A stretch of 64,000 nt of DNA, from positions 78,185 to 142,184 of the forward strand of contig CAWEJX010000012.1 in the NCBI GenBank assembly GCA_963809485.1, read 5' to 3'. The stretch comes from an uncultured Acidobacteriota bacterium. GTDB taxonomy: Bacteria; Acidobacteriota; UBA6911. Positions 1 through 58,320 of this stretch are shown here, one piece after another. Made by a program: the position numbers and the translations under genes. Under the pieces are notes generated by a model. The model worked only from the letters and a program-made list of their open reading frames with translations. It made no database searches and was not told the origin of the DNA. The stretch's first letter is position 1, and every line of letters begins with the position of its first letter.

Positions 1-251
1 CTGGTTCCCGTAAAACCAAGGAGGACGATAATGCCGTCGCTGTACTCGGCGATTTCTTTGGATCTTGCCTCTCTGAGCTCCGGTGCTACGAAGGCGGGCC
101 ACTCGCGAAAATCGATTCTGCCGACCCGTTTTTTCAATGCACTTTCAAGCTGCGGGAGCAATGCCTCTGCCAAACCCGCCCCGGTTCCGAACTTCAGCAC
201 ACCGATCTTTTTTCCGTGCAGGCTTTGCAGACGAGGTGAAGGAGAGACCAT
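1..251 (-). CDS. Partial CDS running off the window edge: N-terminal UGSC-like module of the two-domain family
   Basis: My own minus-strand translation starts at ATG 251..249: MVSPSPRLQSLHGKKIGVLKFGTGAGLAEALLPQLESALKKRVGRIDF...SDGIIVLLGFTGT. It shares the (A/S)PRL-x-x-L-x-GK-x-IG and D-(A/G)-(V/I)-I motifs with the N-modules at 8577, 10389, 15164, 41206, 46953 and 56602. It is absent from the ORF track because no stop lies inside the window. Confidence 0.45.
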   Translation of the reverse strand, partial: MVSPSPRLQSLHGKKIGVLKFGTGAGLAEALLPQLESALKKRVGRIDFREWPAFVAPELREARSKEIAEYSDGIIVLLGFTGT

Positions 252-402
252 GCGGAGAGTTTGAAATTCGCCTCTTGGATTGTATACCGTCAATTCCACT
301 TGTGCTGTTTGGCATAAAAGGCACCCATGCTCATTTGGTATGCAGGATTGATAGGAGCGCTATGAATGGCTGAAACCATATTGCCATCCCGCCATAGTTG
401 CC

Positions 403-1630
403 TTATGAGGTCATTGGACCGAATGCGCCCGCCATCAGGAATCCATCAAATTCGGCTTCTGACATCCCCAAAATCTCAAGGCAAATGTATTCATTGTGTT
501 CGCCCAAAACGGGGGCCTCCCGAAAAAGCTTTGCGGGAGTCATGGATAATCTGGATGGCTGTCCCAAATAGGAGAACTCTCCCAGTTCTTTGTGATTTCC
601 TCTCCAGAAACATTCTCTTTCTCTTAGTTGCACTATCGCTGCAAATATCTTTTGCATCTTGCACGACTCCCGCGGCAACTCCCTCCTGCTGCAGCAGAAC
701 CATGATATGTTCAGGCTCGTATTGGGATGTCCATTGCTCCACAAGATGGTTTAGCCTTGCTTCGTGTTTCTTCCTTTCCGGAAGCGTCGAGAATTCAGGG
801 GCTTTTGTCCATTCCGGATTTCCCATGGCTTTACACATGGATTGCCACTCATCGTCCGTAAAGACAGTGATTGCGCACCAACGGTCCTCGCCTTTGCAGC
901 GAAAGACTCCATGCGGGGCGGCATATTCGCAGGAGTTGCCGTTGGCTCTTGCCTCCATGCCGCTTGTTGAATAATCAAGCAGAAGCGGGGCTATGAGCTG
1001 CAAGCCGGATTCGAACTGGGATACATCAATCAACTGACCTTTGCCCGTTTTGTTCCTGTGGTCGAGGGCGCTTATCAGGGCGCTTGCTGCAAAATGGGGG
1101 ACGCAATAATCCGTATAGGCCACCATTGGGGATATCGGTTCTTCGTCCGGAAAGCCTACGAGATTGACGATTCCTCCCAGCCCATTAATGTGGTTTCCCA
1201 GGCCGGGCTGAGTCGCCGAAGGCCCTGTCAGGCCCTGATTGGAGCTTCGAATCATGATGATATCCGGCTTGATCCTGCTCAATTCATCATAGCCCAGGCC
1301 CCAGCTTTCCAGCACGCCGGGCCTGTGGCTGTCAGCCACAACGTCCGCCCAGGCCACCAGTTTTTTTGCGATTTCTTTCGCGACCGCATTTTTTAGATCG
1401 AGGCTGATGCTGTATTTATTGGCTGCAAAATAGCTGAAAAATCCGGCCCGGTTAATGTTTGTTACGCCATCCTTAAAAGGAGCGGAAGTCCGCAGCAGGT
1501 CCGGCCTCTCGATGGATTCGATGCAGATAACGGTTGCACCGTAATCGGCCAAATATTTAAGGGTCAGCGGACCGGCAATGGCCCACCCGAAATCAATCAC
1601 ATTAATTCCGGCAAAGACCTTTGGATCCAA
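403..1630 (-). CDS. Family III CoA-transferase (CaiB/BaiF type); reading frame broken by a +1 shift near 635
   Basis: The N-terminus reads GINVIDFGWAIAGPLTLKYLADYGATVICIE. The family C-terminus (LGEHNEYICLEILGMSEAEFDGF) lies in ORF 403..744, one frame over. Removing one base at about 635 restores ...DAKDICSDVQLRERECFW... Confidence 0.85.
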
Positions 1631-1657
1631 GCGAGTTCCTTCCTTTCACCCAAATAT

Positions 1658-2912
1658 CTAGATAATTCCGGATTGCTGCAAGAGCACCAGATCTCTTTTT
1701 GAAAAACCCAGTTCCTTTTCATAAATTTCCAGGTTGTGTTCCCCGGGCAAAGGAGCTTTCTTCAAGCCTTGTGAGCGGCGTTTCGGATAATTTTGCGAAG
1801 GGTCCGGGATAGGTAATCTGTGCCGGAATTTCCGGATAATCAACTTTTGCCCAGAAGTTCCTGGCATCCAATTGTGTGTTTTCAAATATGTCTCGAGCTG
1901 TGGACACAGGGCAAAGCATTATCTTTCTTTTTAAGGCCTGGCCATACAATTCGGCCTTTGTGTATTTCAAAAAAAGCTCCGCGATCGGCGCCTCCATCTG
2001 TTCCTGCATTTCCTGTGTCTGTCTGGACATGTCAAACGCAGTCCAATCGAAATTGGCCATAAGCTCCGAGGCCAAACCCTCTTCCTGCAGCCACGCCGCG
2101 ATGGCGCGATTGGTCTTGAGACCGAAATCACCGCCCAAAATATAAAAAATGACGTATCCGTCCTTGCACCGCCACAATAGCTTCTGCTTTGTGTCCGTCC
2201 ATCGGCCCGAGAGATAGGATCCTGCGCGCTTGAGAATTTTATGATTCAACTCCCATAGCGGAACGGCATTGGAGAGCTCCCACAGAACACACTCCTGCGC
2301 CGACACATCGACATATTGCCCTTGCCCGGTTTTTTCACGATAGAAATAGGCGATAAGGCTCGCAGCCGCCGCATGGGCACTGGCTAACAAAAATGACTGC
2401 GGAAAACTTATTCTCACGGGAGGCGCATCCGGTTTCCCTGTTATGTACAACAGTCCACTCATAGCCATGACCACGAGGTCGGATGCCTTGAAGTTCTTGT
2501 AGGGCCCCGTTTGTCCAAACGGGCTGATCGAGGTATAGATCATGCGGGGATTGAGTTGATTGAGATTGGCATATCCCAGCCCCAATTCATCCATGTATCC
2601 CGGCGGGAAGGACTCGATTAGGAAATCGGCATGGTTCACGAGAGTCTTGAGAATCTGCTGCCCATCCGCAGAATCGAGTTTCAGCGTTATGCCTCGTTTG
2701 TTTGCATTGTAGGCCAACCATACAAGGCTTCTTTCCGGCGCCGGAGTTTGGCGATAAAAGGGGCCGATGCGCCTGTCCGGATCGCCTCCAGGCTTTTCAA
2801 TTTTTATGACGTCTGCTCCCAGGTCCGCCAGAATCCTGCCGCACAGGTAGCCGTTATTGTTAGTTAAATCCAGCACTCGCGGCGATCGAGCCAGACATTT
2901 CTTCTCTTCCAT
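1658..2912 (-). CDS. Family III CoA-transferase; +1 frame break near 1763
   Basis: VLDLTNNNGYLCGRILADLGADVIKIEKPGGD follows ATG 2912. The C-terminal LPGEHNLEIYEKELGFSKRDLVLLQQSGII lies in ORF 1658..1885 in the +1 frame. Confidence 0.85.
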
Positions 2913-2916
2913 CCGA

Positions 2917-4101
2917 TTAGTTTCCTTTAGGGCGTAATCGATTATCCAGCGGGGAGAAATTATTCTTCCTGGACGGCAGAGCCACAATCGCATAGCCGGG
3001 CATTACATTTTCATGCCTTTGATTTATCGCGGATCGTTCGATACGAACGCAGGAATCTCCGTCGGCATCCATGAACTTTTCGGTAACCTTGCCCTTGATC
3101 CAAACGACGTCCGATAAATATACGAACTTATTGTATTCCGTATAACTTCTCTTCAGCCAGCCATCGTCTCCCATCCAATTGGTGATCAGTTGAACGGCCC
3201 AGCAGTGCCTTTGAACGCCGACATCGTAGGAGTGCGGAAGCCCCATGGCATTGGCCGCGGCCCGGTTATAATGAACGGCAAAAATCGGTTCGAGCGCTGA
3301 GGTGTTGGGATCCCGGAAAGCCCAGGCCGGATGCTTTTGATAGGATCGCAAAGCCACACCGTGGGCCTGCAATCTCGGGATAGGGACTCCTCCGCCGATA
3401 ACGTAAGCTATTTCATCCGTGACTCCGAGCGGCCCTTTGACCACCGGTTTAAGCTCATCCCCGATTTCAACGTCTTCCCAATACCGCGGGTTGGAGCCTC
3501 GGATTTCCTCGGAAAGAATTTCCTGTTCAATCTGCTGCAATTGTTCCTCGGTCCAGGGATGCGGCAATTCGATGTGAGCGTGCCTTTTTTTCTCGCGGGC
3601 CTTAGCCCTGGCAAAATGAACCACCCACCAGCGATACCTGGCGATTAGATCCCCGTTCTGGTTCCAATATTGATTTTGAAAATGATCTATCACGGTTTCG
3701 TCAGCATAGCTGCTTTCCTTCGGCCCCTCAAAACTCTTGAATACGCACTCTGCCGATATTTTATCCCCTATATAGATCGGCTTCATGAATTCCACATCGC
3801 AGCCCGCATGAAAGCCTCCCAGTCCTCTCCAGCCAAATATTACATGCGCAAAACAGGCCCAGACAAAGGAAGGAGGAGCCACGATGCGGCCATACGGGCT
3901 ATTTTGGGCATATTCCTTATCACTCCATAGAGGATTCACATCTCCTACGCCCTCGATGAATTTGAGAATCGCCATTCTGGATGCATACTCGTTGTGCGTG
4001 CTTTCGTCTATCCGCAGCGAGAGGCCCAGTTTGGCGCGCATTCCCTCTATCATTTCCTTGGTGATTGTCGAATCCGGCATCACCACCTTTTTTTCGGTCA
4101 T
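2917..4101 (-). CDS. MaoC-like / FAS1-type double hot-dog acyl-CoA (de)hydratase
   Basis: The ORF is about 395-419 aa. It has an N-terminal hot-dog region with GDVNPLW and a C-terminal MaoC-like region (GDELKPVVKGPLGVTDEIAYV...SDVVWIKGKVTEK). The likely start is ATG 4101, preceded by GAAGAGGTGG. It is embedded between CoA-transferase genes. Confidence 0.7.
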   Translation of the reverse strand: MTEKKVVMPDSTITKEMIEGMRAKLGLSLRIDESTHNEYASRMAILKFIEGVGDVNPLWSDKEYAQNSPYGRIVAPPSFVWACFAHVIFGWRGLGGFHAGCDVEFMKPIYIGDKISAECVFKSFEGPKESSYADETVIDHFQNQYWNQNGDLIARYRWWVVHFARAKAREKKRHAHIELPHPWTEEQLQQIEQEILSEEIRGSNPRYWEDVEIGDELKPVVKGPLGVTDEIAYVIGGGVPIPRLQAHGVALRSYQKHPAWAFRDPNTSALEPIFAVHYNRAAANAMGLPHSYDVGVQRHCWAVQLITNWMGDDGWLKRSYTEYNKFVYLSDVVWIKGKVTEKFMDADGDSCVRIERSAINQRHENVMPGYAIVALPSRKNNFSPLDNRLRPKGN

Positions 4102-4150
4102 CAGCCACCTCTTCAGCACGATCCGATCGTTCCAGCTGTATGCTTTGGAT

Positions 4151-5509
4151 CTATACCTCGCCAATTCCAATACCAAAATGTTTTCTCAGTTCAGTGACAT
4201 AATCCGGATCCATGCACCCCGCCTGTTGTTTTTCCAGCAAATCTACTCGTGTGGGCCTTCCGGGTGGGAACTCGGGCGTCCTGGAAATGACCTTCTCCTG
4301 CTCCAGATGCGCAAGGTCCTGCTTCGACATGCCCAACAAGGAACAAAGAACGTATTCGTTGTCCTCTCCAAAATGAGGAGCTCGTTTCAGTGCAGATTTC
4401 TTGAATCCCCGGAACTTTGCCGGTATCTGGCTGGGTATCGGTCTCTTACCTATGCCCTCCCCGTGGTCGACACACTGAAAGAAGCCTCGCTTCATGAGGT
4501 GAGGATTCAGGTTGATTTCTTTCATGTTGAGCGCCGGCCCGGCCGGAATTCTCAACCTCTGCAGGGTATACAATACTTCGAATTTGTCCCGCCGAGCAGT
4601 CCATTGCTCAATGAGGCAATCCAATTCAGGTTGCCTTGCAAGCCTGGCCTGCCTGGAGGAGAATGCCGGGTCCCTTAAGGCTTCCGGCTCATGAATCTCC
4701 CGGACGAAGCGTTTCCATTGGCTATCGGTTTCTATGGCAATCGCCACCCATTCGTCATCTCCCTTACAGCGGTAACAGCCGTGAGGGGCACATCCCGGAT
4801 GACGATTGCCCATGCGTTTCCGGTCGCGAGTGTTCAGGATGTAATCGAGAACTATGTCGCCCAGATGACAAATGGTGGCTTCTCTTCCGGAAACATCCAC
4901 GTACTGTCCCTTGCCGGTTTTCCTCTGATGGAAAAGTGCGGTCATCAGCGCCATGGCGGCATGTGCGCCCGTAACCCAATCCCCGTATGCGAAACCGGAC
5001 AGAAGCGGGGGCTCATCAGAATTGCCGGTGTTGTGCGTCAAACCACTCATCCCCTCCATGCCCGGCACATACATATAGTAGTCTTTGAGGGGGCCATCGT
5101 GTCCCAAACCGCTGATTGAAACCATGATGATTCGAGGATTGATCTTCTTTATGCGTTCGTAGTTCAATCCCCAATTGGTCATGACCCTGGGCGAATAGTT
5201 CTCAATGACTGCGTTGCTCACTTTTAGCAGCTGCCTGAAGATATCGCGTCCTTCTTCGGTGGCCATGTTGAGTGAAATGGCCCGTTTGCCTGCATTGAGG
5301 GAGTGAAACAGGCAACCGCGGTTCCAGGGATCGGTGCCCGGGTTGTTATCGGGATAGACATTGGCTCGCGTAAATACGTCGGGGCGTTGCCATGATTCTA
5401 TCTTGATAACTTCAGCCCCCAATTCGGCCAGTATCTTGGTGGCAACGGGACCCGCAAAAACCATGGTCAGATCGATAATCCTGATGCCCTCTAAAATCTT
5501 GTATGCCAT
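4151..5509 (-). CDS. Family III CoA-transferase (intact, 452 aa)
   Basis: GIRIIDLTMVFAGPVATKILAELGAEVIKIE, GKGQYVDVS and FGEDNEYVL are typical family motifs. Confidence 0.85.
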   Translation of the reverse strand: MAYKILEGIRIIDLTMVFAGPVATKILAELGAEVIKIESWQRPDVFTRANVYPDNNPGTDPWNRGCLFHSLNAGKRAISLNMATEEGRDIFRQLLKVSNAVIENYSPRVMTNWGLNYERIKKINPRIIMVSISGLGHDGPLKDYYMYVPGMEGMSGLTHNTGNSDEPPLLSGFAYGDWVTGAHAAMALMTALFHQRKTGKGQYVDVSGREATICHLGDIVLDYILNTRDRKRMGNRHPGCAPHGCYRCKGDDEWVAIAIETDSQWKRFVREIHEPEALRDPAFSSRQARLARQPELDCLIEQWTARRDKFEVLYTLQRLRIPAGPALNMKEINLNPHLMKRGFFQCVDHGEGIGKRPIPSQIPAKFRGFKKSALKRAPHFGEDNEYVLCSLLGMSKQDLAHLEQEKVISRTPEFPPGRPTRVDLLEKQQAGCMDPDYVTELRKHFGIGIGEV

Positions 5510-5524
5510 TCTCGTCCCGATCGT

Positions 5525-6730
5525 TTATATGATCCCGGCGCTCTGCAATTTTTTGATTTCTCTTTGTGTGTACCCCAATCCCCGATAAAACTCACGATTG
5601 TGCTCTCCCAACAGCGGAGCCCTTCCGGGGAGCCACGGTGTTTTGCCCAGTTTGACTGGCGATCCGGGGCTGGCAATTCTGCCCAGATGTGGATGATGCG
5701 TCGTATCAAAGAACTTCCTGGCTTTCAATTGCTGGTCCTTGAAGAGTTCTCCGGCGCTCAGGACGGGAGTGAAGGCCAGGCGCAGCTCCTGGGCTTCGGC
5801 TGTAATGTCCCATTTGTTGCGGCTCATCAGCCACGGAATGATCAGGGCGTCAAATCCTTCCGGATCGGCCATGCGCGTTCGCGGGTCGGCAAAAAAGCCG
5901 CTATTTTGAAGTTCAGGTTCGTTGATCAGAAAAGGAATATTCGGCGCGCCTCCGATGCCGGGCGTGAGGCTGATCCATCCATCTTTACAGGGGACGCTGT
6001 AACCTATGGGGTAACCGTGGATGGCAAATGGATTGGTGCGTCTGCTAAATCCCAGGTACGAATATTCCGTAACATGTCCCATTAAAGTGCTGGCAACACA
6101 CTCCATCATGCCTACATCTATCGATACACCACTATTGTTCTTTGCCCGACCTATCAGAGCCGCTACTGTCCCTATATAGCTCAGCACCCCGGTCGAGAAT
6201 TCCGCCTGGTATCCTCCTTGTACTGCAGGTCTTGTTTTGGGTTTAGTGCCCGGTCTCATCGGGTACACTGTCCCGCCGAGGGCCGATACCGTGAGATTAT
6301 TTGCGCGGTAGCGACGGTAGGGCCCGGTTTTGCCAAAAGCTGAAATGGAGGTCACGATCATGCGGGGATTGATGGTCCGCAGTATTTTCCCGGATAAACC
6401 CAGTTTTTGGAGAGTGCCCGGAACATAGCTTTCCACAAAAATATCTGTTGTTTTCAAAATCCGCTTTAATATTTCCGTCCCTTTTTTGCTTTGGACGTTT
6501 AATGTGATGCTTTTCTTATTCGTATTCAGATAAAAGAAAGTGCCGCTCTTCTCGAGGTCGTACTCATCGTTTGGGAACGGCCCTATTTCCCGGGTGATGT
6601 CCCCAAAATTCGGTCTTTCGACCTTAATCACTTCAGCGCCAAAAGAAGCAAACAATTTCGTGCAATAGGGACCTGCGATCCCCTGCGTAAGGTCCAGTAT
6701 CTTAACGCCGCTGAACACCCGTTCGCTCAT
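5525..6730 (-). CDS. Family III CoA-transferase (about 401 aa from ATG 6730)
   Basis: MSERVFSGVKILDLTQGIAGPYCTKLFASFGAEVIKVE...LGEHNREFYRGLGYTQREIKKLQSAGII. The longer ORF-track start at 6985 would read through the palindromic operator and overlap the upstream gene. Confidence 0.85.
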   Translation of the reverse strand: MSERVFSGVKILDLTQGIAGPYCTKLFASFGAEVIKVERPNFGDITREIGPFPNDEYDLEKSGTFFYLNTNKKSITLNVQSKKGTEILKRILKTTDIFVESYVPGTLQKLGLSGKILRTINPRMIVTSISAFGKTGPYRRYRANNLTVSALGGTVYPMRPGTKPKTRPAVQGGYQAEFSTGVLSYIGTVAALIGRAKNNSGVSIDVGMMECVASTLMGHVTEYSYLGFSRRTNPFAIHGYPIGYSVPCKDGWISLTPGIGGAPNIPFLINEPELQNSGFFADPRTRMADPEGFDALIIPWLMSRNKWDITAEAQELRLAFTPVLSAGELFKDQQLKARKFFDTTHHPHLGRIASPGSPVKLGKTPWLPGRAPLLGEHNREFYRGLGYTQREIKKLQSAGII

Positions 6731-6762
6731 AAAATCACGCTGACTTGCCGGCAACAGAGATG

Positions 6763-6789
6763 TTCGTACCATAATACGTATACGTACAT
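6763..6789 (-). promoter_or_regulatory. Candidate operator: the minus strand reads ATGTACGTATACGTATTATGGTACGAA
   Basis: The core matches 13 of 14 positions of GTACGTATACGTAC and the 3' flank TA(T/G)G(G/A)T(A/G)CGAA is also present. It lies about 45 nt upstream of ATG 6730, in the gap after the 6852 gene. The same element occurs at 16276-16302 and 29713-29739. Confidence 0.55.
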
Positions 6790-6851
6790 GGCGGCTTTCA
6801 ACAGGCATCCTGTGGTTCGGTTGAATCGAGTCTGCATATAAATTGGCCGTG

Positions 6852-8577
6852 CTACTCAGCCGGCAGGATTTTTTCCCAGTTTGCCGGCAATTGGATCCTT
6901 TTGCTGACCGGGGGCCCTTGCTCGTGGTTTTGGACATAGCCTCTGCTGCGATTTCGCCCGGAGTCCCCACTGACCACAATCCCAATCCATTCGGGCTTCA
7001 AAAATACCGGAACCATTCTTGCCGGATCGTCTGACTCGCAATACAGGTGTGAAATCAGCTTCTCGTCCACCCTTCGGCGCAGGCTGAAGCCGGTAAAACC
7101 TCCCTGCCAGGCGAGTCTTTCCATTGAGGCCACAGACACCTTGGAGTGGTCATACAAATACTGCTGCACGTCCTTTTTCTGCAACCCGTCTTTTGCCAGC
7201 ACGCGTGCTATGCTTGGACTGATTACCAATAAAGGAAAAAATTTCCCCCAATTGACGGCCATGTGGGTCCAGGTCGACATGGCTCCCCCGAACACTTCCA
7301 CGAATGTGTCCAGGTGGTCCCTGGCTTTATCCCCTCCACTGGCAATCGGCGCTGTTGCGTATACAACACTCTGGACGGTGACGACACTATCGTCGGGTTT
7401 AAAGCCGCGAGAAACGCTGAACGATTCCCATCCAAGCTCGGTCAATACATCCTCATTCTCGGCCAGAGCTACCTTGAATGTTTCACCGATCGTCGCCTTA
7501 TCCGTTGTTCCGGGTGGTATCCGCAAACCGGCCACATTCCTCATGAACAGCCTCAAAAAGCGGCCCATGCTGGTATTGGCCTGGCGGCCAACTCGCATCA
7601 CCCCGGTTTCATAGTTGATATTCAGGTCTTTTATTATGGGGCCATTGAGAACAATCAGCGGCTCCCAGCCGGGGGTACTGCCGGCATCCTCAATCCGGAA
7701 TTCAGGATCGGAAACAGCCTCTATAACGGCCAGGAGAACGGGCATATATTCCGGTCTGCACCCTGCCATTACGCCGTTAACAGCGATGTTCCAGACCGTG
7801 GCCGCCCGGCTTTCGGGAAGCAAAATCCCGATGACTTCTTCCCGCGACCGGTCCGTAAATTGAAGAAACTTTTCGACTCTGTCGATGGTCGGAGGGATCA
7901 CCGGGAGACCATCGGTCCATTGTCTCCTGATAAAAAACTCCTGAACTTCATCCAAAGTCCCCCGGAAAATGATTTGGTCCGGTTCCGGTTCTTTTGTTCT
8001 GGCCGCCTGCGTTACAGGTTTGGTAAATACCTGAATGATATTGTCGACAAGGGTACCGGTAACCTTTTGGATCAACTCTTCCCGGCTGTCTACGGACACC
8101 ACGCCTGGATACTCCGCCACGGGCAGATTCTGGACTCCCAGGCTCTGGCCCACTGTCTGGACTTGTTTCAAAAAGCCGGTGGTGATAATCGAGGCTGAAG
8201 GAATGCCGGCTTTTTCAGCAACTACGCTTGCCCGCGCAACCGCGGGCGAGCAGCTGCCTCAGCCTCCGACTCCGGATATAACGGCATCACAGCCGATATT
8301 GACGAAGTCTGTCTGCCAGGGTGGCAATGATCTCGGCTTCTTGCGGGCCATGCGTATTGCCGAAGGTCTCATATTCAATGAATTTTACACCCGGATATCG
8401 CTCGGACAGTGAGGCTCGGATGAGAGGAAAAATTTCTTCCGCCCTGAAACCGTAGTCCGACAACTCACAGATAGTCTTGCCGGATAAATCCGCAATTCGA
8501 GGCGCCAGGGTTACCTTTTCAGATATTATTTTCCCAAGAGGCCATACAACTTCGTATCCCGTCTCTTGCATCATCAA
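6852..8577 (-). CDS. Two-domain UGSC-type selenoprotein (N-terminal UGSC module plus uncharacterised C-domain). Sec codon is at 8261..8259. A +1 frame break lies near 8310.
   Basis: ORF 8287..8577 gives the N-module (APRIADLSGKTI...). In the next frame I read FVNIGCDAVISGVGG-TGA-GSCSPAVARASVVAEKAGIPSASIITTGF. That reading continues in frame into ORF 6852..8171 (WTDGLPVIPPT, NGVMAGCRPEYMPVLLA). Confidence 0.75.
8230..8247 (-). promoter_or_regulatory. SECIS-like stem-loop 11 nt downstream of the UGA at 8261..8259
   Basis: The mRNA reads UGA-GGCAGCUGCUC-[GCCCGCG GUUG CGCGGGC], a 7-bp GC stem. The GGUU sequence sits at the apex. Confidence 0.55.
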
Positions 8578-8667
8578 TCTCCCGATCTCGCCGTGGATAC
8601 ACGGCTTTCAGCATATTCGCCTCAAAAAACCGATCCTCTCTATCCCAATGCAATTGGCGGATACACC

Positions 8668-10389
8668 TTATTTAATCGTCGGACTTCCCCATCCTCCGTA
8701 TTTAGAGAGGAGGGAGTGCCAGTTTTGAGGAACGTGTATCGGTTTGGTTACAAAATGCGATGGCCCATATCCCCAGGTCCCTATATAGGCAATCATGTCG
8801 GGACCGGGGCCTCCAGCAACGCAGACCTTGAGGCTTTCCGGATTGAGAAGCAGCGGTACCGGGGCATTCGGGTCTTTCTGATGTTTTTCAATAACCCATT
8901 TCGGCAGCCTGCAGAATCCCGGGGCTTCCCTTCCGTCGAACACCTCGTTTCCGGGCAACTGGATTCTTTCGTATAGCTTTTCCTGGAGTTTCTTTCTGGA
9001 AAAACCTTCCCGACGGATAGCCTCAAATGCAGTCGGCGAAATAAGCACCAGATTGTTGTAGATACAGTTAAGAGCATACCGGTCATATTTCGCTTTTGCC
9101 TGGAGGCTAATATGGGAAATGATTCTCTCGACGGAAGGAGGAGTCGGCAATACCAGGTCCGGCTGCCAGGACATGGCCGGCATCACGCTGATTGTCGGCT
9201 GATCGTCAGGAAATCCTTCGGCGACTCGCAATGGTTCCCATGCGCCTGAGTATGCCGATTCATTCTCTCCTATCAGGGAGTAATATCTGAAAGGGCTCCC
9301 GAAGGCTTTCATGTCATTGATGCCGGGCCAGGTTTGGCCCAGGTTCATCATTATCAGCTTAAGCGCCCGCCCGATCGCTGCATTCGCTTTCCATCCCGGA
9401 CCCACTGTGCAAAAACTATCATTTATATTGAGTTCATCGATCAGCTTTTTCCCGCTGACAACAAAGAAAGGAGCCACCTGGCCGGATGTGCACTGCACGC
9501 CTATGAGGTCAAACAAGGGATCGATGATCGCTTCCACCGCAGCCAGGATGACGGGCATATGCTGCGGCAGGCACCCGGCCATCGCCGCATTGACCGCGAT
9601 CTTCTCTATGGTCGCGTTCACTCCACTGGGAGGGAACCGGGCTATGACGTGCTCGCGCGGCAAGGATGCCCCTTCAAGCATTCTTGCCACTGCCTCTTCC
9701 GTCGGCGGTGCCAGCGGCAAGCCATCGCTCCAGCCATGATTCAGGAAAAAGCGCTCCATTTCCTCCTGAGCTGCAAGGAAATCCTTGCCGCCGAATGCCA
9801 GACTCGCTTCATTGACTTCCGGTATCTCAGGAGGCTGCGGGGACCACCGGGTCAAAGATCTGACAACCTCGTCCGCAACCTTCTCGGCTATCTCCAATTT
9901 CTCAATTTCCTCTGCAGGCGGTACATAATCCAAAATCAACGGAGCCACTGCCAGGTCTTCCAAACCTTCGCTCCTTGCAAGAAACCTGGCGTTGGATTTA
10001 AAACAGTTTGTGACTATGAATGCCACCGGCTTCCCCAATTTCTCAATACGGATGGCATCCGGGGCGGTTCGGGTCGTGCTGCCTCCCGACATTCCCATCG
10101 CGACGATCACGGCATCGCTATTGTCGGCAACCTCTCTGAGTTTAGCCGCCCTGGCATCCGCATCCCCCAGCACCGACATTTCCCACGTGCGGAATTCGGC
10201 GTCGGGCATTCTGTTTCTCAGGGCCTTGTCCAGGTAAGGATAGAATATCTGGCCCACCGGGACGCGGTTTCTGAGGATGCCGATCTTCACCCCATTCAGG
10301 TCCTTCAGACGAGGCGCATTGGGTATTGGAGCAATCTCCGAACTCGCCGTGGGATTCAAAACCCTCAGATGCGTTTGGCCGCTGGTCAC
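8668..10389 (-). CDS. Two-domain family paralogue in which the U-x-x-C pair is replaced by SGGS
   Basis: SDAVIVAMGM-SGGS-TTRTAPDAIRIEKLGKPVAFIVTN aligns with the ...GD-UGSC-T... region of the paralogues. The C-domain has GWSDGLPLAPPT, NAAMAGCLPQHMPVILAA, ANAAIGRALKL and ENE. The probable start is GTG 10389 after GGGAGGA. A TTG at 10410 is the alternative. Confidence 0.75.
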   Translation of the reverse strand: MTSGQTHLRVLNPTASSEIAPIPNAPRLKDLNGVKIGILRNRVPVGQIFYPYLDKALRNRMPDAEFRTWEMSVLGDADARAAKLREVADNSDAVIVAMGMSGGSTTRTAPDAIRIEKLGKPVAFIVTNCFKSNARFLARSEGLEDLAVAPLILDYVPPAEEIEKLEIAEKVADEVVRSLTRWSPQPPEIPEVNEASLAFGGKDFLAAQEEMERFFLNHGWSDGLPLAPPTEEAVARMLEGASLPREHVIARFPPSGVNATIEKIAVNAAMAGCLPQHMPVILAAVEAIIDPLFDLIGVQCTSGQVAPFFVVSGKKLIDELNINDSFCTVGPGWKANAAIGRALKLIMMNLGQTWPGINDMKAFGSPFRYYSLIGENESAYSGAWEPLRVAEGFPDDQPTISVMPAMSWQPDLVLPTPPSVERIISHISLQAKAKYDRYALNCIYNNLVLISPTAFEAIRREGFSRKKLQEKLYERIQLPGNEVFDGREAPGFCRLPKWVIEKHQKDPNAPVPLLLNPESLKVCVAGGPGPDMIAYIGTWGYGPSHFVTKPIHVPQNWHSLLSKYGGWGSPTIK

Positions 10390-10414: not shown

Positions 10415-11440
10415 TTATTTCGGCCGGATCCCTTTCGAATAATTCACCCGGCCTACATAGAATTCCTCCTCAGGCTCGCGCGGCGTTACACCTGCCCTTT
10501 TCAGGCCTGCCCGCATGGCATCCTTCAAGCGCTGGAACAGGAATGACGTCGGTTTCCTGAACATGCCTCCATTCCCGCCAGTCAGCCACTGCATGTATTT
10601 CATTCCCAGCATCCCGCCCTGAAACGCGGCATCCCGGGCGCCCATAATTATCGGAGTCAGCTCCCAGTAGAGTTCCATCCCTTTGGAGAACTCTCCTTGA
10701 GCGAACAGATTGAACATCCGGACTATTCTTGGATTCTCCGCTGTCTGGTCGAAGATTACGTAGTCGGCCGGCCCCGCCCACTGTTGTCCGTATTTGGCGA
10801 CAGTGATCGGCCATTCCGCCATTTCTGCGGCCTGAAGCAGCACTTGATCGCCGACACGATGGTGAACGTCAACCCACTTTCCAAGGCCGTCACTGAGATA
10901 GGCCTTTATTGCCACTACGTTGGGTATTTGACAGATTCTCTCGATGAGCGCCGGATTGAACATGCTTGGATGAAATCTTCCGAAATCGTAAAAAGGTTTC
11001 GGCCAGAGATCGACAGCGAGGTTGATGGAATCGCATATCTTTTGGGTGACGCGATAGATGTCCTCTTCCGATTTGGCATAAAAGTTGCCCGGCCAGCCCA
11101 AAAGAGTGTGGGTTCCGCCCACGCTTTCGAAATAATTCAGCAATTCTATCGATTGATCGGCATCGTCAAGGGCTCCGAACATGGACACAAGAACTTTGCC
11201 CTTGGCTTCTTCAGCGACAATTCTTACAAATTGCCTGCGCTCTTCATTGCTCAAAGCGCTGACTTCTAAGGCGCAAAATACGCTGAACATGCCTTTTTCT
11301 ATGTTGTGCCTGACGTCGTGCCGGATCCCTTCCTCATCCAGCGCCTCGAGGTCCGGAGTGTACGAGGGTTGAATGACTCCATCCAATCCGCGATAGTGCT
11401 TTTTGGCCCATGCCTTCGCTTCTGGTTTTGTAAATTCCAT
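10415..11440 (-). CDS. Dihydrodipicolinate synthase / N-acetylneuraminate lyase family (class I aldolase) protein
   Basis: The ORF is 341 aa. The family layout is present, with the putative Schiff-base Lys in IPNVVAIKAY. It is a paralogue of 11513..12559 and 16828..17874. Confidence 0.7.
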   Translation of the reverse strand: MEFTKPEAKAWAKKHYRGLDGVIQPSYTPDLEALDEEGIRHDVRHNIEKGMFSVFCALEVSALSNEERRQFVRIVAEEAKGKVLVSMFGALDDADQSIELLNYFESVGGTHTLLGWPGNFYAKSEEDIYRVTQKICDSINLAVDLWPKPFYDFGRFHPSMFNPALIERICQIPNVVAIKAYLSDGLGKWVDVHHRVGDQVLLQAAEMAEWPITVAKYGQQWAGPADYVIFDQTAENPRIVRMFNLFAQGEFSKGMELYWELTPIIMGARDAAFQGGMLGMKYMQWLTGGNGGMFRKPTSFLFQRLKDAMRAGLKRAGVTPREPEEEFYVGRVNYSKGIRPK

Positions 11441-11512
11441 AAACAGCTCCTTGCAGTGGTGATAACGCGTTTTATCCGTTATCGCATATACATAGGTGTC
11501 TTCTATTTCGTG

Positions 11513-12559
11513 TCATGCCTCATATTTTTTGAGCCTGTAACCTTTTGCATAATTTACGCGGCCCACATAAAACTCCTCCTCCGGCTCACGCGGAGTAATT
11601 CCCAGGGCTTTCATACCGGCCCTGATGGCATCCTTTTGATAATCGTACAGACGGCCTGTAGGCTGCCGGACGGTTCCGCCATTTCCGCCGGCGCACCAGT
11701 GAGCGTATTTATCCGATAGAGCGGTCACGATGCCGGTGTGAAAGTAGGAATCCGCCAACGACCCCTGTGCGCCCGGCCGGGACATCCCCCAGAAGATATC
11801 CATAGCCTTGTCGATCTCGCCCTTGATTAAATTGTCGAATATCCTCACGATTCGCGGATTCTCAGGAGTCTGCATACAATAAAAAGGCCCTGCGCCGGCC
11901 CACTGCTGCCCGTACTTCGGGATAGTGAAAAACCATCTGTCCGGCATCGGATCACTGACCAGGATTCGATCACCGCAAAGATGGAAAGCCTGAATGGTGA
12001 GTGCAAGGGAACTGCCGCCGGTGACTTTCATCGCCACGACGTTGGGGATGTCGCAAATTCGGCGCATCACGTCCGGCGGGAAATAACTTGGATGGAAATG
12101 CCATGTGTGCAGCCGGCCGGGATAAAACGTTATTGCCAGGTTGGTGGACTCGCACATGAATTTATACATCTGGAAAATGTCTTCTTCCGACCGGGGGTAA
12201 TATTGCACCGGATGGGCAAGCGTGACATGAGTGCCGCCGACCTTTTCGATATGATGCAGCATCTCGATATCCTGCTCGACCGTGTCCTGCATGACGCTTA
12301 CGGAACTGTGCATTTTGCCTTTGGCTTCGTCGCAGACTATCTGCACGAATTGCTTCCGTTCCTCGAATGTCATGCCGCAGGCCTCGGGCGCAGCCATTAT
12401 CGAAGTAAAGCCATTGGCGTAAATCTGGTTGACATCGAAACGGATGCCATCGTCATCCAGCTTTTCAAGGTCGGGAGTGAAAGAAGGGAAAATCGGCACT
12501 TCCAGGCCTTTCATATGCTTCTTTGCCCACAATTTAGCTTCTGATTTGGTGTATTCCAT
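11513..12559 (-). CDS. DapA/NAL-family class I aldolase paralogue
   Basis: The ORF is 348 aa, with IPNVVAMKVTGG. It is about 75% identical at the protein level to 16828..17874. Confidence 0.7.
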   Translation of the reverse strand: MEYTKSEAKLWAKKHMKGLEVPIFPSFTPDLEKLDDDGIRFDVNQIYANGFTSIMAAPEACGMTFEERKQFVQIVCDEAKGKMHSSVSVMQDTVEQDIEMLHHIEKVGGTHVTLAHPVQYYPRSEEDIFQMYKFMCESTNLAITFYPGRLHTWHFHPSYFPPDVMRRICDIPNVVAMKVTGGSSLALTIQAFHLCGDRILVSDPMPDRWFFTIPKYGQQWAGAGPFYCMQTPENPRIVRIFDNLIKGEIDKAMDIFWGMSRPGAQGSLADSYFHTGIVTALSDKYAHWCAGGNGGTVRQPTGRLYDYQKDAIRAGMKALGITPREPEEEFYVGRVNYAKGYRLKKYEA

Positions 12560-12625: not shown

Positions 12626-13679
12626 TTATTCAATCACCCTGGTAATAGAGCCATTCCCAAAGGTTGGAATAAAGCATGAATGCTTTCCCGGTCCACCCAA
12701 AACCATTACGACAAAGTCATCCTTATGGGCGATCGGCATCCATTCACAGTCTGTAAATTCACCATACTTTTCAGGGAATTTTCTCCTGTACTGGAGATTT
12801 TCTTCAGACAAACTCTTTTTAGAGAAGCGAGCATTTTCAAAAAGAAATTCCCTAATCTGCTCCTTTGAAAATCCGTCTTTGGCGATCGCCGCTGCATGTT
12901 CCGGGCACAGCATCAAGACAGGTTCGCCGGTGAAAAAAAGCGCATTGTTGCTGCCCGGTTGAGCCATAGTAGCGGCAATGGTCCTCAATAAGTCTTTGCC
13001 AAGGACACTGTTATGTTCATTGATATTGTGGGGGCCTTCCGCAGCAAACACAGTGACCGTGCTATCCCCGGCTTTGAAAGCCTCTCTCAACATGGAAAGG
13101 CTGCCACGGACTTTCCTCTTCGTTTTCGGCAACGCAGTAGGTGTATTTTCCAGGCTGACCCTGCGTGGACTTGTCGATCTCGCCCGGCATGGCCCCTCCG
13201 ATGTTGATCAGGATCAACCTGACGGCGCGGCCTATGGTTGCATTGGCTCTGACTCCAGGTCCGAATGCATTGCCTTTGCCGTTCAATCCTATTCTTTGCG
13301 CGATGGGACCGTTGACCACGATCAAGGGACTGCAGGGATGCGTTGTTGATTGCACGCCCCGGAGCCCGAATTTCTCATCAGACATCGCCTTCAGGGCAGC
13401 GACAATCACCGGCAAATACTCGGGCAGGCATCCAGCCATCACGGCATTGATGGCAGTCTTTTCCAGCGTGGCGGCTCCCATCCTTGGAGGAAGGATCGCC
13501 ACAACTTCCTGCGGATCCCCATTGCCGATAGCGGACAGCATTCTGCGTACCCGCTCCTCCGTGGGTGCGATGATCGGCAGGCCGTCGCTCCAGCCAAACT
13601 TGATGAAGGCGTTGTTTACAGCGTCTTCACAATTCTCAACGCGAACTTTTTTCGATACCAGCCTGCGGACGTTTTCCAC
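12626..13679 (-). CDS. Stand-alone C-domain of the two-domain family (no UGSC module); +1 frame break near 13076
   Basis: GTG 13679 follows GAGGTGAT. The sequence reads FGWSDGLPIIAPT, INAVMAGCLPEYLPVIVAA, ANATIGRAVRLILINIGG and AENEEESPWQPFHVERGF. It then continues in the +1 frame as KAGDSTVTVFAAEG..., which is ORF 12626..13132. Confidence 0.75.
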
Positions 13680-45276: not shown

Positions 45277-46953
45277 CTAGTAAATCTCGTAGTTGGGAAC
45301 AAGAGCTTTATATTTTGCTACAAGCTTGTCCCAATTGCGGGGAAACTCGATCTTTTTGGTGACGAAGCTGTTTTCGAAACCGCCCGAGCTCTTAAGTGCC
45401 GCCATCCAGACGCCAGACCCGCCCGAGACGACCACTATGAAATCCTCTTCTTTGAGCGGCGATCGAAATTCGCCCCGAGGCGCGTTTTTCAAAATGAACT
45501 CCCTGAGCCTCTTCTTCGACCACCCTTCGCTTGAAAGAATGCGAGCATGATCGGGGATGACCACCAGGCAGGACAGCGCGTTAGGACCAAAGCTCGCGAG
45601 TCTTTCGGCAATTCCCTGAGCCGTCGTCTGACTGGGGATGGTTTGGGTAAAGCTATTCGGAAAAAGTACAGTCAGCGCGCTGTCCTCTTTTTTCAGGCCG
45701 AAGTTGACATGCAGGGGTTCCCATGGGCTTTCTTCTTCATTCTCCCCGAGCACAAGGGTGTATTTTTGGGGATTGCCCATGACCCCCATGTCCTCGATAC
45801 CCTTTCTCACCCCAGCGATGTTCTTGACCATTAGGCCGACGGCGCGCCCAATGGCGGCGTTGGCCATGTTCCCGGGACTGAAAACGCCCGAGCCGCAATT
45901 TATATTGAGATCATTGCGCACCCCGCCGTTGATGATGAAGAAAGGCGCCCACGAACCCGTGCTTGTTTGAAAGACATCGAATCTGGTTTTCGGATCCGCC
46001 AGAGCTTGCACCGCCGCTATCAGCACCGGCATGTAAGTAGGAAGGGCGCCGGCCATGACCGCGTTTACTGCAATTTTCTCAACAGTAGCCTTGCCTAACT
46101 TCGGTACCATCTTGGCCACCACCTGATCGGGCGGCAGGTCCGTCCCGGTCATCATTTCCGCCACCGCCTTTTCGGTTGGCGGCACAACCGGCAGGCCATC
46201 GGTCCAGCCCTTACTGTAGAAGAAATGGGTTACCTCCTGTTGGGTTCCCTTGAAAATGATCCGGGGAGCCTTCGCCGCTTTCGGCTTCGGCGATTTCTCT
46301 TCGGGCGTCAGCGGTTTAGTCAGTGCGGCAATAATTTCCGGCAGAACGGCAGTGATGCCGCCCTCGATATCTGCGGCAACAGTGGATTCACAAGCGATAT
46401 TTTCAGCCAGGATTCTGACTCCCGGCATTCCTTTGACAGATGCTGCTGCCTGGGCATCCTTAACGAAACCATAATTCGCCAGTACCACGACCGGCGTGCC
46501 AAAGTCCTCGACGGATACTCCGTTGTACGCGAGGTACTTTGTGCAGGACCCTCAGTCACCGACCATGGCAATGACAGCGTCCATACTCTTTACCCAGGCG
46601 GCAAATTCATTGCCGTCTTTCTGTTCTGCCACGATGATGGTCGTCAAACGGGGTTCAAAGAAGCTGAACTCAGCAGTAGTATATTTTTCTTTCAGTTGCT
46701 TCGCAATCGCCTCTGCCATAGGCTTGGCGGCGCGCTTCCTGTTGGTAAACAGCCCGATTTTCTTGCCGGCCAAAGTATCCAGCCGGGGCGCGAGTCCCCT
46801 CGGCGGCACTGCATCCGCTTCCGCCCACGGGCTAAGGACCTCGTATTGATTGTCCGGTGCGGGGCTGGCGAACGGCGTTGGTGAAGGGGCCGTTACTACC
46901 AACGTGCAGAGGACAGTGGTGATCAAAACCGACGCAATTTTATGCATAAGCAC
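45277..46953 (-). CDS. Two-domain selenoprotein with a signal peptide; Sec codon at 46554..46552 (motif UGSC)
   Basis: The N-terminus reads MLMHKIASVLITTVLCTLVVTA. APRLDTLAGKKIGLF is followed later by SMDAVIAMVGD-TGA-GSCTKYLAYNGVSVEDFGTPVVVLANYGFVKDAQ. That reading is in frame (46953-46488=465) with GWTDGLPVVPPT, VNAVMAGALPTYMPVLIAA, ANAAIGRAVGLMVKNIAG and ENEEESPWEPLHV. Confidence 0.8.
46500..46541 (-). promoter_or_regulatory. Extended SECIS-like hairpin starting 10 nt downstream of the UGA at 46554..46552
   Basis: The mRNA reads CAAAGU-A-CCUCG-CGUACA-ACGGA-GUA-UCCGU-CGAGG-ACUUUG. That gives 16 bp in three helical segments. The apical GGAGUAUCC is the same 9-mer as in the 14808-14826 hairpin but is read in a different codon phase. 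Confidence 0.45.
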
Positions 46954-48007: not shown

Positions 48008-48021
48008 TTTTGTCTAAGCTC

Positions 48022-50367: not shown

Positions 50368-50378
50368 TTTCTCCTCCT

Positions 50379-55952: not shown

Positions 55953-56601
55953 CGGGGCGCGCACCTATGGAGGATGTTCGTGACGCGCAGCATCGATCGG
56001 TATGCACTGCATGGCGGGTAAGCCTGCAGATGCAAGGAGCTCTTGCCGACGGCTTCCGATCCATCTTTCAGCAATTCCATTCTGCCATGGACTTAAAGGG
56101 CTCGTGCGTTTGGGGTTTATGCCACTTGACTCCAGCAATTCCATTGCTATCCAAAACCTGTAACATATTGTAAAATCAAACTGTTATAAACAGATCGGCA
56201 ACGGTGGATGTCAGAAAGCTACATAATGCCTTATCAGAAACAGTGTAGAAGGCATCCGCGGACCGGAATAGCCGCCTGCCAGGCGAAACGGCAGCTTGAA
56301 CTTCCTATCTCTCTTTGGCCAAAGGAAAGCCGGGAGATAAGGTCTACGATCTGATAAGGAAGATCAATTTCCTGCGTTCTCGTGGAACGGTTCCATTCGG
56401 TATCCCGCCGCAAACGCAGTCCCCTCAAAACCACGATTGACGGGGACGTTGCATTCCGGCGATTCGGCGGAGAGATGGATTGTCGTCCTTGTGGCACGTA
56501 ACGATACAAAACCATTCACGGCATTTCGGGCGGATGTCCGCCTTTTCAGTCGTAGCGGAATCGGTCCTTCTTTTCGACTTTACTGACCAGCGAGGTTTGG
56601 T

Positions 56602-58320
56602 ATGCGTTTCGGAAAATTTCTGATATTGTGCTTCCTCGAATTGAGTCTATTTCCACTGCATGCTCAGGAACCCAAAGTTACTGTAATGAACCCGCTGGGA
56701 ACTCCCCCTCCGATCCGGCTGGTTCCCATGGCGCCGCGACTCGATACGCTCGACGGCAAGACCGTGTATTTTGTCGATTCGCGCTATGTGGGAGGAGATA
56801 TCTTCCTGAAGGAGATGATGTCCTGGTTTTCCGTGAACATGCCCAAAGTTAAGCTTGAATTCAGGCAGAAGGCCGGCGCCTACGCGGAAAGCGATCCCCA
56901 GTTGTGGGACGAGATCCGGCAAAAAGGGGATGCTGTAATTATGGCGATCGGGCATTGAAGTACCTGCACGCCGGCGGTCGTCGGCCATTGTCTCGAGCTC
57001 GAGAAACTCGGCAAGCCCACTGCGCCTGTTGTTACGAACAGCTTTGTGGCGTTGGCAAGAGGCAATGCCCATAAGCGCGGCATGCCGGGAGAACGTTTCA
57101 CCTTTGTTCCGCACCCTGTCTTCGGGAAGACGCCGCAGGAAATGCGGCGCGATATTGAAGGGAAGGATCCGGTCACGGGAAGACCGGTCATGCAGGAAAT
57201 CGTGGAAGCCCTGACCAAGCCGCTGACTGCGGAAGAAAGGAAGGATGGATTCCTGCAGAGGCCGCCAAATCCCCGGTTCCTTCCCCCCGATACTGCGGAC
57301 AACCTGCAGCGATATTTTCACGAACATGGAATGACGGACTATCTCCCGGTCATTCTTCCTACCGGGGAAAAGGTAGCCGCCATGCTCAAGGGAACCAGTC
57401 ATGACCGCAACGAGGTGGTTGGAAAAATGGCGGGAGGCGCGTTCGACCCCTGGGAATACACGGTGGAACAGGTGGCCGTGAATGCCGTCATGGCCGGTGC
57501 GCGGCCGGAATACTTGCCGGTTATCCTCGCACTGGCATCTAGCGGGCAGGCATCGCTGTACAGTTCCACAAACTCATTCGCATATTCCGTGGTGGTCAAC
57601 GGGACGATTCGCGACGAGATAAAAATGCACTACAGGGTCGGAGCGATGGGGCCGTTCAGCCAGGCGAACGCAACGATTGGAAGAGCATGGACTTTGATGT
57701 CGAGAAACCTGGCAAACGGAGGCATCGTCGGAGAGACATACCTTGGGTCCACCGGGAACAATCTGAATTACAACAATCTCGTTGTCGCCGAGAATGAAGC
57801 GGACAGTCCGTGGAATTCACTGAGTGTGCAATTAGGATACAAACCGGGGGAGAGCGTCATCAGCATCTTTACCGGTTTGGGAATGCAGCCGGGACAATTT
57901 GCGAAGGGGGGCGGCATTTCGGTAAAGCCTCGGTATGACGAACAGTTTCTGAGCGTAATAAGCAATTTCACTACGCTGTTTGGAGCTTTGGTAGTCTGTG
58001 ATCCCCTCATTGCCAAGGCTCTCAAGGAACAGGGCTACGATACAAAAGAAAAGCTGATTGACTGGCTTTATAAAAATGCCGTCCATACGGTGCGGGAATA
58101 TAAGGACGCCAGTTTTGTGCTGACATTTGATCTTCCTCGAGCTCAGAAGGGCGTTGAGCCCTTCGCCTCGTGGTTCAAGCTGCCGGATGACGCAAAAATT
58201 CCAATCTTTATAAAGCCGTCGGATCTCTCGATTGTGGTGGCAGGCGGCCAGACGCAGGCCAGGTTCCAAGCGGGGAATCTACGCTATACGGCGAGTTTTT
58301 CTGTTGACAAATGGAGATAA
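56602..58320 (+). CDS. Two-domain selenoprotein with a signal peptide; Sec codon at 56956..56958 (motif USTC)
   Basis: The signal peptide is MRFGKFLILCFLELSLFPLHAQ. APRLDTLDGKTVYFV is followed later by KGDAVIMAIGH-TGA-STCTPAVVGHCLELEKLGKPTAPVVTNSF. That reading is in frame (56602 and 57046 are both 1 mod 3) with HGMTDYLPVILPT, VNAVMAGARPEYLPVILA, ANATIGRAWTLMSRNL and AENEADSPW. Confidence 0.8.
56970..56985 (+). promoter_or_regulatory. SECIS-like stem-loop 11 nt downstream of the UGA at 56956
   Basis: The mRNA reads UGA-AGUACCUGCAC-[GCCGGC GGUC GUCGGC], a 6-bp stem with one G-U pair. As I recall, GGUC is also the apical-loop sequence of the E. coli fdhF SECIS. Confidence 0.6.

Follow-up and report, generated by a model that had tools for sequence, protein, structure and literature searches.

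GrdB, GrdF and GrdH, together with PrdB, are the substrate-specific selenoprotein B components of the glycine, sarcosine and betaine reductases and of D-proline reductase. The 'UGSC-containing protein' was described as a selenoprotein family in 2007-8 by Zhang and Gladyshev (PMC1976440, PMC2398784). In the Global Ocean Sampling (GOS) survey it was among the most abundant selenoprotein families, with 255 selenocysteine (Sec, U) and 21 cysteine forms (PMC2398784). A thioredoxin-like fold was supposed for it (PMC2398784), it was grouped with thiol oxidoreductase-like selenoproteins (PMC2398784, PMC13188914), and a review of 2026 still describes it as functionally uncharacterised (PMC13188914). 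A fusion named 'UGSC/Unknown_1' was reported in 2008 (PMC2398784); Unknown_1 may or may not be the C-terminal domain treated below. Literature searches with DUF6282, PF24696, NF041046 and neighbourhood terms returned nothing further. Here we analysed 64,000 nucleotides from an uncultured Acidobacteriota bacterium of the UBA6911 lineage (assembly GCA_963809485.1, contig CAWEJX010000012.1, positions 78,185 to 142,184 of the forward strand; hereafter the window), in which eleven loci encode members of the UGSC family, both as selenoproteins and as forms devoid of the redox motif.

A family hidden Markov model (HMM), built from an alignment (A1) in which one window member and its database homologues were combined with three further paralogues from the window, was run against the six-frame translation of the window with stops masked. 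Across all six frames it detected exactly eleven family loci, numbered m01 to m11 by position, plus one relic, and nothing else. When the eleven products were aligned with MAFFT, with TGA read as U, the N-parts and the C-parts both proved homologous across loci, which bears out the original prediction that the loci constitute one family. A typical member consists of an N-terminal α/β module of about 180 aa (PF24696) and a conserved C-terminal domain of about 370 aa (C-domain). Nine window loci have an N-module that matches PF24696, with the U-G-S-C type motif at the same place. All N-modules tested exceeded the gathering threshold of 25 bits (m05, 175; m10, 102; m08, 97.6; m03, 84; m06, 61.5; m07, 53), at E values between 1e-14 and 1e-52 (2e-23 for m03), and m09, which consists of the C-domain only, gave no PF24696 match, as expected. 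Against the equivalog model NF041046 (cut-off 125 bits), m05 scored 152.6 bits once a 1-nt insertion had been removed, and the fusion proteins scored 43.6-86.4 bits. The NF041046 model describes a protein of about 147 aa that stands alone, whereas most members here and elsewhere are fused or adjacent to the 370-aa domain. We conclude with high confidence that the eleven loci are members of the UGSC (seleno)protein family, PF24696/NF041046. The family had been called uncharacterised, and its function is indeed unassigned, but it is not unnamed, since its N-module is that of PF24696/NF041046 and of the published reports (PMC1976440, PMC2398784, PMC13188914). The window therefore holds a new set of members of a named family, not a new kind of protein.

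In five window paralogues an in-frame TGA occupies one and the same alignment column, the first position of U-x-x-C. These are m02 (6852..8577, minus strand; profile match 6861-8565), a UGSC fusion with its TGA at 8259-8261 in the context G-U-GSC; m05 (14591..15164, minus; 14715-15128), a stand-alone UGSC selenoprotein with TGA at 14838-14840 (D-U-GSC); m08 (41206..42993, plus; 41290-42924), a UGGC fusion with TGA at 41569-41571 (D-U-GGC); m10 (45277..46953, minus; 45307-46851), a UGSC fusion with TGA at 46552-46554 (D-U-GSC); and m11 (56602..58320, plus; 56662-58311), a USTC fusion with TGA at 56956-56958 (H-U-STC). The frames join across the TGA at all five loci. The open reading frame (ORF) pairs quoted in the original prediction, 41044-41571 with 41695-42993 and 56602-56958 with 57046-58320, are in frame, as is ORF 46552-46953 with 45277-46488 in m10. 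Comparison was made with 82 loci from other genomes, containing 106 N-modules (neighbourhood counts given below cover about 90 loci). TGA stands at the motif column in 93 of the 106 modules (UGSC in 68, UGAC in 11, UGGC in 5, and others), Cys in only 2, and the remainder are motif-less subfamilies. This ratio of 93 Sec to 2 Cys forms resembles that of the GOS survey, 255 to 21. The USTC subtype of m11 occurs with TGA in two of these loci as well (L017 and L027).

Bacterial-type selenocysteine insertion sequence (SECIS) structures were sought as a stem-loop beginning about 11-20 nt 3' of the UGA. A hairpin follows each of the five window TGAs, beginning about 9-16 nt downstream: at about 8217-8258 in m02 (SECIS-like), 14801-14832 in m05, 41576-41607 in m08 (GGUU loop), 46497-46545 in m10, and, as a short hairpin with a GGUC loop, 56970-56985 in m11. 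Their z-scores against shuffled sequences were -2.7, -1.3, -2.9, -2.3 and -0.3, respectively. Family-wide, the 57 nt after the TGA were more structured than control segments of the same genes (n = 97 sites, Wilcoxon p = 5e-10), and a perfect stem of at least 6 bp was present at 72% of sites compared with 30% of shuffles. An Rfam scan of the window gave no match. Together the shared column, the joined frames and the hairpins agree with the claim that five members had been hidden from ORF callers by an in-frame TGA. Public annotation does split such genes, as had been foreseen: calls for the orthologous operon give a 103-105 aa 'UGSC' piece and a separate 419-457 aa piece. The sequence evidence is strong that these five members are true selenocysteine genes.

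The TGAs could instead be genuine stop codons, or errors of sequencing, in an assembly that is error-prone or whose genes are decaying, and the 'fusions' would then be pseudogenes. Three family genes do contain a 1-nt insertion. The reading of m02 as a single continuous frame proved wrong, for an inserted base near 8300 (TAT[C]GGC) shifts the frame upstream of its TGA. At 12626-13679 (m04) and 14591-15164 (m05) the predicted C-domain and UGSC loci are real, but neither frame is intact, owing to an extra T in a T run near 13075 and an extra G in a G run near 14715; the G-run insertion places the true C-terminal tail of m05 ('RLVTIPHPLAGVTPEEVRKKAENAVDTIVAVL') in another frame. Other broken genes lie at 25866-27361 (SMP-30/gluconolactonase-like), 29879-31695, 32992-33429/33413-35407 (molybdenum (Mo) subunit of a xanthine dehydrogenase (XDH)-family enzyme) and 61537-62803 (uroporphyrinogen decarboxylase (URO-D)-like). 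The split genes and the three insertions suggest assembly indel errors or widespread or recent gene decay. Against their extension to the TGAs, m02, m04 and m05 are all intact in the orthologous contig L084, which comes from an NCBI metagenome-assembled genome (MAG) and whose m03 orthologue is 85% identical, and the TGA is retained in that operon. Codon differences between the window and L084 are mainly synonymous on either side of the TGA (synonymous/non-synonymous, 30/17 before and 151/71 after in m02; 30/24 and 29/27 in m05), so that purifying selection persists beyond it. The TGA column is identical in five paralogues and 93 of 106 homologues from many phyla, haloarchaea, Sphingomonas and Variovorax have Cys there, hairpins lie downstream, and the selenoprotein family is an established one (PMC2398784). 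We therefore regard the reading of the TGAs as stops or errors as already effectively refuted.

The remaining six members lack the redox motif or the entire N-module. Both redox residues are lost in four of the nine N-module members, a difference from the UGSC family as described: m03 (8668..10389, minus; profile match 8671-10380), a full-length SGGS fusion with neither Sec nor Cys at the motif and without a signal peptide; m06 (22193..24034, plus; 22295-24025), a full-length LDTN fusion with a hydrophobic N-terminal signal or anchor, 46% identical to m11; m07 (27610..29433, plus; 27721-29424), a full-length AGQA fusion with an apparent signal peptide; and m01 (1..308, minus; 3-308, E = 2e-32), the FTGT-type N-module of a full-length member cut by the window edge, whose orthologues at the same operon position have 576-591 aa. 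In m04 (12626..13679, minus; 12623-13661) the C-domain forms a protein of its own. The other member without an N-module, m09 (43331..44665, minus; 43358-44581, profile positions 150-574), retains an apparent signal peptide and the first strand ('IEVYNPAG') and has lost the rest of the module. Judged by eye, the N-termini of six members, m06 to m11, including the Sec fusions m08, m10 and m11, resemble signal peptides, and these proteins look exported. The relic predicted near 61268-61492 was also recovered, as a 41-aa C-domain fragment at 61337..61459 (plus; E = 1.4e-7) covering the W-x-DGLP-x-x-PP region.

The two modules also occur apart. Among the other-genome loci, N and C modules follow each other in this order on one strand in 76 cases, stand as separate genes in the order C to N in 19, and the N-module occurs alone in 8. 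Dehalococcoidia, Paracoccus and haloarchaea likewise have the modules in neighbouring separate genes, as m05 and m04 are here. The stand-alone UGSC and C-domain genes flank a DUF6282 gene, separate and intact, in three other contigs, and the m04 orthologue is a separate gene of 348-353 aa in the orthologous operons. The loci listed as 'N-module only' and 'C-domain only' are thus conserved separate genes and not debris.

These two genes belong to an operon (1-16090, minus strand) that recurs with every gene in place in three other contigs, one of them L084. It comprises, in order, a thioredoxin reductase (TrxR)-like flavoprotein (15170..16090), the stand-alone Sec protein m05, a DUF6282 protein (13701..14579; PF19799, E = 4e-61), the stand-alone C-domain m04, two dihydrodipicolinate synthase (DHDPS)-family, class I aldolase-like genes (10415..12559), the SGGS fusion m03, the Sec fusion m02, two CoA-transferases, a MaoC-like hydratase, two further CoA-transferases, and the FTGT-type fusion m01. 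The four CoA-transferases, all of family III, and the hydratase occupy 491..6985; their order, like the position of the DHDPS-family genes, is conserved in the other contigs. A DUF6282 gene also adjoins family members in 7 other-genome loci.

The flavoprotein (306 aa) ends 6 nt before the start of m05 and carries a redox-active CALC at the position of that of TrxB. It scored 311 bits against TIGR01292, below the cut-off of 343.45, and 237 bits against the AhpF-homologue model TIGR03143. We read it as a TrxR paralogue and not as the housekeeping equivalog. Like the low-Mr TrxR/AhpF-type reductases it has FAD and NAD(P)H domains and a CxxC, here encoded immediately upstream of a small U-x-x-C protein; unlike in those systems, the putative acceptor is not predicted to have a thioredoxin fold. 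This linkage recurs outside the window. In 8 loci, from three phyla (Proteobacteria, Chloroflexota and Thermodesulfobacteriota), a family gene is followed by a TrxR-like homologue at a distance of at most 150 nt. Within the whole of the flanks examined, about 15 of the 90 loci have such a homologue, in organisms that range from haloarchaea to Proteobacteria. In Haloterrigena turkmenica, a haloarchaeon in culture, three adjacent genes (HTUR_RS18945-18955) encode the N-module with CGSC, the C-domain and a TrxR-like protein whose motif is CAKC, each as a separate product. In Variovorax boronicumulans (RZE79_RS32275/32285) a TrxR-like gene, a TctC binding protein gene and a CGSC fusion stand together.

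On the basis of the motif and these neighbours, we propose that the U/C-x-x-C module is a redox centre that would cycle between selenol/thiol and selenenylsulfide. In the cytoplasm the adjacent TrxR-like flavoprotein would re-reduce it, electrons passing from NAD(P)H through FAD/CxxC to UxxC. The C-domain would bind the substrate and set specificity, and each paralogue would act, by reduction or in some other way, on a small organic substrate of its own from the catabolic island around the genes, which encodes CoA-transferases, a MaoC hydratase, DHDPS-like aldolases, amidohydrolases, XDH-family enzymes and a glycyl radical enzyme. Members without the motif or the N-module would presumably carry out a variant of the task that involves no redox step, or serve as partners. 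Since six members are apparently exported, those would have to use a reductant other than the cytoplasmic reductase. As an explanation of the whole, ancient UGSC members served by such a reductase are the account towards which we lean. The specific route from NAD(P)H through the TrxR-like protein and U/CxxC to substrate, with a variable specificity domain, is put forward tentatively and by analogy, as something possible but short of probable.

The analogy is with selenoprotein B. GrdB and PrdB share with the proteins described here a U-x-x-C motif, the occurrence of paralogous sets (in the present case for presumed different substrates), a thioredoxin reductase gene (here TrxR-like) next to their own, and a place in the anaerobic catabolism of small nitrogenous or organic acids. 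They differ in that the window has no GrdA-like carrier, pyruvoyl proprotein or acetyl-phosphate-forming component, and in that some window members are apparently exported. We take the likeness as one of logic, not of membership.

Several observations weigh against the proposed scheme. It is built on motif, neighbourhood and analogy, and about 75 of the 90 loci have no TrxR-like gene in the flanks examined. Neither module resembles GrdB/PrdB (PF07355) in sequence, with no match even at E ≤ 10. Full conservation of the C-domain in the four members whose N-module has no redox residue means that C-domain function does not require Sec. In the C-domain itself neither Cys nor His is conserved, and no motif for a cofactor can be recognised. 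The members that appear exported could not use a cytoplasmic reductase. As to Sec, one of the five hairpins, that of m11, is no better than shuffles (z = -0.3), and Sec-insertion genes (sel genes, tRNA) were not found in the window annotation or by tRNA scan.

The motif and the partner would also suit a different role, that of general thiol/selenol defence oxidoreductases which reduce peroxides, disulfides or electrophiles and would themselves be the acceptor of an AhpF/TrxR-like reductase, as thioredoxin or AhpC is, the C-domain being a scaffold. The resemblance of the TrxR-like partner to AhpF homologues (TIGR03143, 237 bits) is in keeping with this, as are the U-x-x-C motif and the grouping of UGSC with thiol oxidoreductase-like selenoproteins in the literature (PMC2398784, PMC13188914). 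Such a role is hard to reconcile with eleven diverged copies within catabolic operons whose synteny with CoA-transferases and aldolase-like genes is conserved, with a large conserved C-domain that has invariant polar residues of its own, and with non-redox members conserved across phyla.

The predicted fold bears on the same point. An AlphaFold2 model of the SGGS member m03 shows two modules (pLDDT 85, pTM 0.88), with the motif in the loop that connects a β-strand (residues 93-99) to the next helix (102-117). When the whole model was compared with the PDB by Foldseek, the N-module alone was matched, and weakly (query-normalised template modelling (TM) score about 0.2), by azoreductase, NQO1, flavodoxin domains and lumazine synthase; the top 50 matches included no protein of thioredoxin fold. 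Given the weak TM scores, we provisionally assign to the N-module a predicted flavodoxin-like parallel β/α fold and not a thioredoxin fold, in contrast to the thioredoxin-like fold of the UGSC literature. This too speaks against a defence role, which we consider improbable. In a sequence search of the PDB, the m03 region of residues ~87-184, including the SGGS loop ('GMSGGSTTRTAP'), also weakly resembled the T4 nucleotide-binding loop of FtsZ (E = 0.012), which is probably due to chance. Alternatively, the loop could bind phosphate or another anion in members that lost Sec.

The C-domain is defined by the motifs W-x-DGLP-x-x-PPT, A-x-NAVMAG, N-x-x-IGRA and AENE. Its invariant residues are D, T, T, N, N, R, N and E, with several G/P, and all are kept in the members without the redox motif or without the N-module. 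It had no NCBIfam match and no Pfam match even at E ≤ 10 (a Pfam search of both modules gave PF24696 only), and single-protein and profile searches by sequence found no PDB relative, only chance-level matches. A profile of the eight window C-domains was compared with the 1.84 billion representatives of a protein library clustered at 50% identity; it matched 7,274 clusters with E ≤ 1e-3, of which 2,192 reached E ≤ 1e-30. Many of these matches are proteins of 410-470 aa that start just past the TGA/Sec position, which marks them as truncated gene calls. The source names seen for C-domain homologues were all 'hypothetical protein', as were those of every m03 orthologue (97-50% identical).

The main rival to the reductase scheme arises from this domain. 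It takes the C-domain for an enzyme without redox chemistry that acts on carboxylates (a hydro-lyase, an isomerase or a ring-opening hydrolase, for example), and the UGSC module for a redox-sensitive part that serves regulation or assembly and has no share in catalysis. The persistence of the C-domain invariants in C-only and redox-less members accords with it. So does the setting of MGTS non-redox fusions in Sporomusa and Vibrio, which sit by genes for aconitase X, DUF126 and an enolase-like protein and not by a TrxR-like gene. When the C-domain was modelled alone (pLDDT 71.5), the top Foldseek match was class I fumarate hydratase (E = 1.6e-4, probability 0.91, about 385 columns), with cyclic-amide hydrolases further down the list. 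These matches, however, have TM scores of about 0.2 and an rmsd of 17 Å, and an hhalign comparison of the C-domain profile with E. coli FumA gave a probability of 0.8%. Moreover, 88% of other-genome N-modules keep Sec, the costliest residue to encode, which argues for a catalytic over a regulatory role, and a dedicated reductase is conserved from archaea to bacteria. We judge this rival unlikely.

A kinship of the C-domain with class I fumarate hydratase was rejected on the same figures and is not used here. Both would act in organic-acid metabolism, but the three cysteine ligands of the [4Fe-4S] cluster in the hydratase have no counterpart in the C-domain, which is devoid of invariant Cys. 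We treat the C-domain as having no identified structural relative.

We also asked how eleven paralogues came to lie in one window. They are only 25-46% identical to each other pairwise, while each has a closer counterpart in another phylum, 42-71% identical over most of its length (38% for m05). Recent local duplication is ruled out by these values as the origin of the cluster, in which ancient subfamilies have instead accumulated. The window proteins have their nearest named relatives in Acidobacteriota MAGs, at 81-85% identity. The paralogue density had been thought unusual, but it is not unique to the window: one Chloroflexi MAG has 13-14 N-modules in four loci (L007, L026, L028 and L030). 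It had further been suggested that the density reflects substrate-range diversification of a single chemistry. Diversification is plausible and fits ancient subfamilies, whereas a single shared redox chemistry is doubtful because four of nine N-modules lack both redox residues and two members have no N-module.

Taken furthest, the UGSC module, the 370-aa domain and the TrxR-like flavoprotein might form an unrecognised class of NAD(P)H-driven selenoenzyme reductases, ranging from haloarchaea (Cys) to anaerobic bacteria (Sec), whose specificity domain radiated into many substrate-specific paralogues including exported ones. We hold this wider claim to be doubtful. Were it true, it would be a third substrate-reducing selenoenzyme system beside the glycine-type and proline reductases, and a selenoprotein family that ranks among the most abundant in ocean metagenomes would have its function. 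What the window adds is the occurrence of fused and split forms side by side in one conserved operon, a TrxR-like partner that recurs from haloarchaea to Proteobacteria, and a defined catabolic context. An annotation gap is also exposed, as the C-domain has no Pfam or NCBIfam model and most public Sec members are truncated at or after the UGA. The Cys-form counterparts in the cultured H. turkmenica and V. boronicumulans could be expressed without Sec machinery. The operon, the TrxR-like linkage, the uncatalogued C-domain and the Cys-form homologues together make an old functional question testable.

Elsewhere, the neighbours of family genes are generic catabolic genes, including those for luciferase-like monooxygenase, TctC, short-chain dehydrogenase/reductase, enoyl-CoA hydratase, and ATP-binding cassette (ABC) and major facilitator superfamily (MFS) transporters. 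In the window, XDH-family gene sets flank family members: one occupies 47042-51041, immediately before m10 and m09, and others are found at 29879-37807 and from 62956 on. The family proteins could accordingly be sulfur or selenium carriers or maturation factors for the neighbouring XDH-family molybdoenzymes, delivering, for example, a labile S/Se ligand, and XDH-family sets also lie by family members in L002, L081, L084 and one further contig. XDH genes are present in only about 4 of the 82 other loci, and in haloarchaea, Variovorax, Vibrio and Sporomusa no XDH-family enzyme is annotated beside the family gene. A maturation factor would moreover have no need of eleven diverged paralogues with a 370-aa conserved domain, and we think this role very improbable.

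The 2Fe-2S subunit of the XDH-family set upstream of m10 and m09 (50379-51041, minus) has a twin-arginine translocation (Tat) motif, SRREF. A FAD_binding_2 flavoprotein encoded at 52769-54364 (minus) has a twin-arginine motif, RRNF, and many apparently exported proteins, family members among them, are encoded between about 41 and 61 kb. The XDH-family FAD-subunit gene and its 3' flank occur twice, at 47037-48086 and at 62951-64000, up to the window end, with about 99.5% identity; either this segment of the operon was duplicated recently or the duplication arose in assembly. The boundary of the copy, near 47037, coincides exactly with the point where m10 begins downstream. The Mo-binding subunit gene stands in tandem (29906-32172 and 32998-35261, 72-86% identical); the first copy lies in several ORFs (29879-30808, 31123-31695) and is probably a decaying duplicate. 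At 35411-37807 (plus) a 798-aa fusion is encoded in which XDH-type FAD-binding and C-terminal domains are interrupted by GltD-like Fer4_20 and Pyr_redox_2 domains, an architecture that also adjoins family members in L081 (789 aa).

An intergenic repeat of about 200-400 nt is dispersed in three copies (39386-39788, 51428-51618 and 61032-61273) that are 78-96% identical, and may be a small mobile or recombinogenic element. A spurious-looking ORF, 39379-39786, lies inside the first copy, and the C-domain relic at 61337-61459 directly follows the third.

The glycyl radical enzyme (771 aa) and its activating enzyme, at 18450-21915 (plus), belong to the PFL2/glycerol-dehydratase subfamily, and the enzyme scored far under the cut-offs of all named equivalogs (choline lyase, hydroxyproline dehydratase and sulfopropanediol dehydratase). 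A 446-aa protein encoded at 38079-39419 (plus) has no Pfam match and is distantly URO-D-like (22% identity to a Sporomusa URO-D-family protein); its homologues in L081 (12636-13958) and L002 (1516-2823), 72-75% identical, adjoin DUF6282 and family members. The MGTS fusions beside aconitase X and DUF126 lie on pSPTER of Sporomusa termitida (L088) and pVEu of Vibrio europaeus (L089), and the Variovorax family locus has ornithine-cyclodeaminase-family and DHDPS-family neighbours. These neighbours hint at imino-acid or hydroxyproline-type metabolism in the three genera. As a general lead, proline-derivative metabolism was set aside as an anecdote, aconitase X being present in only 3 of the 90 loci.

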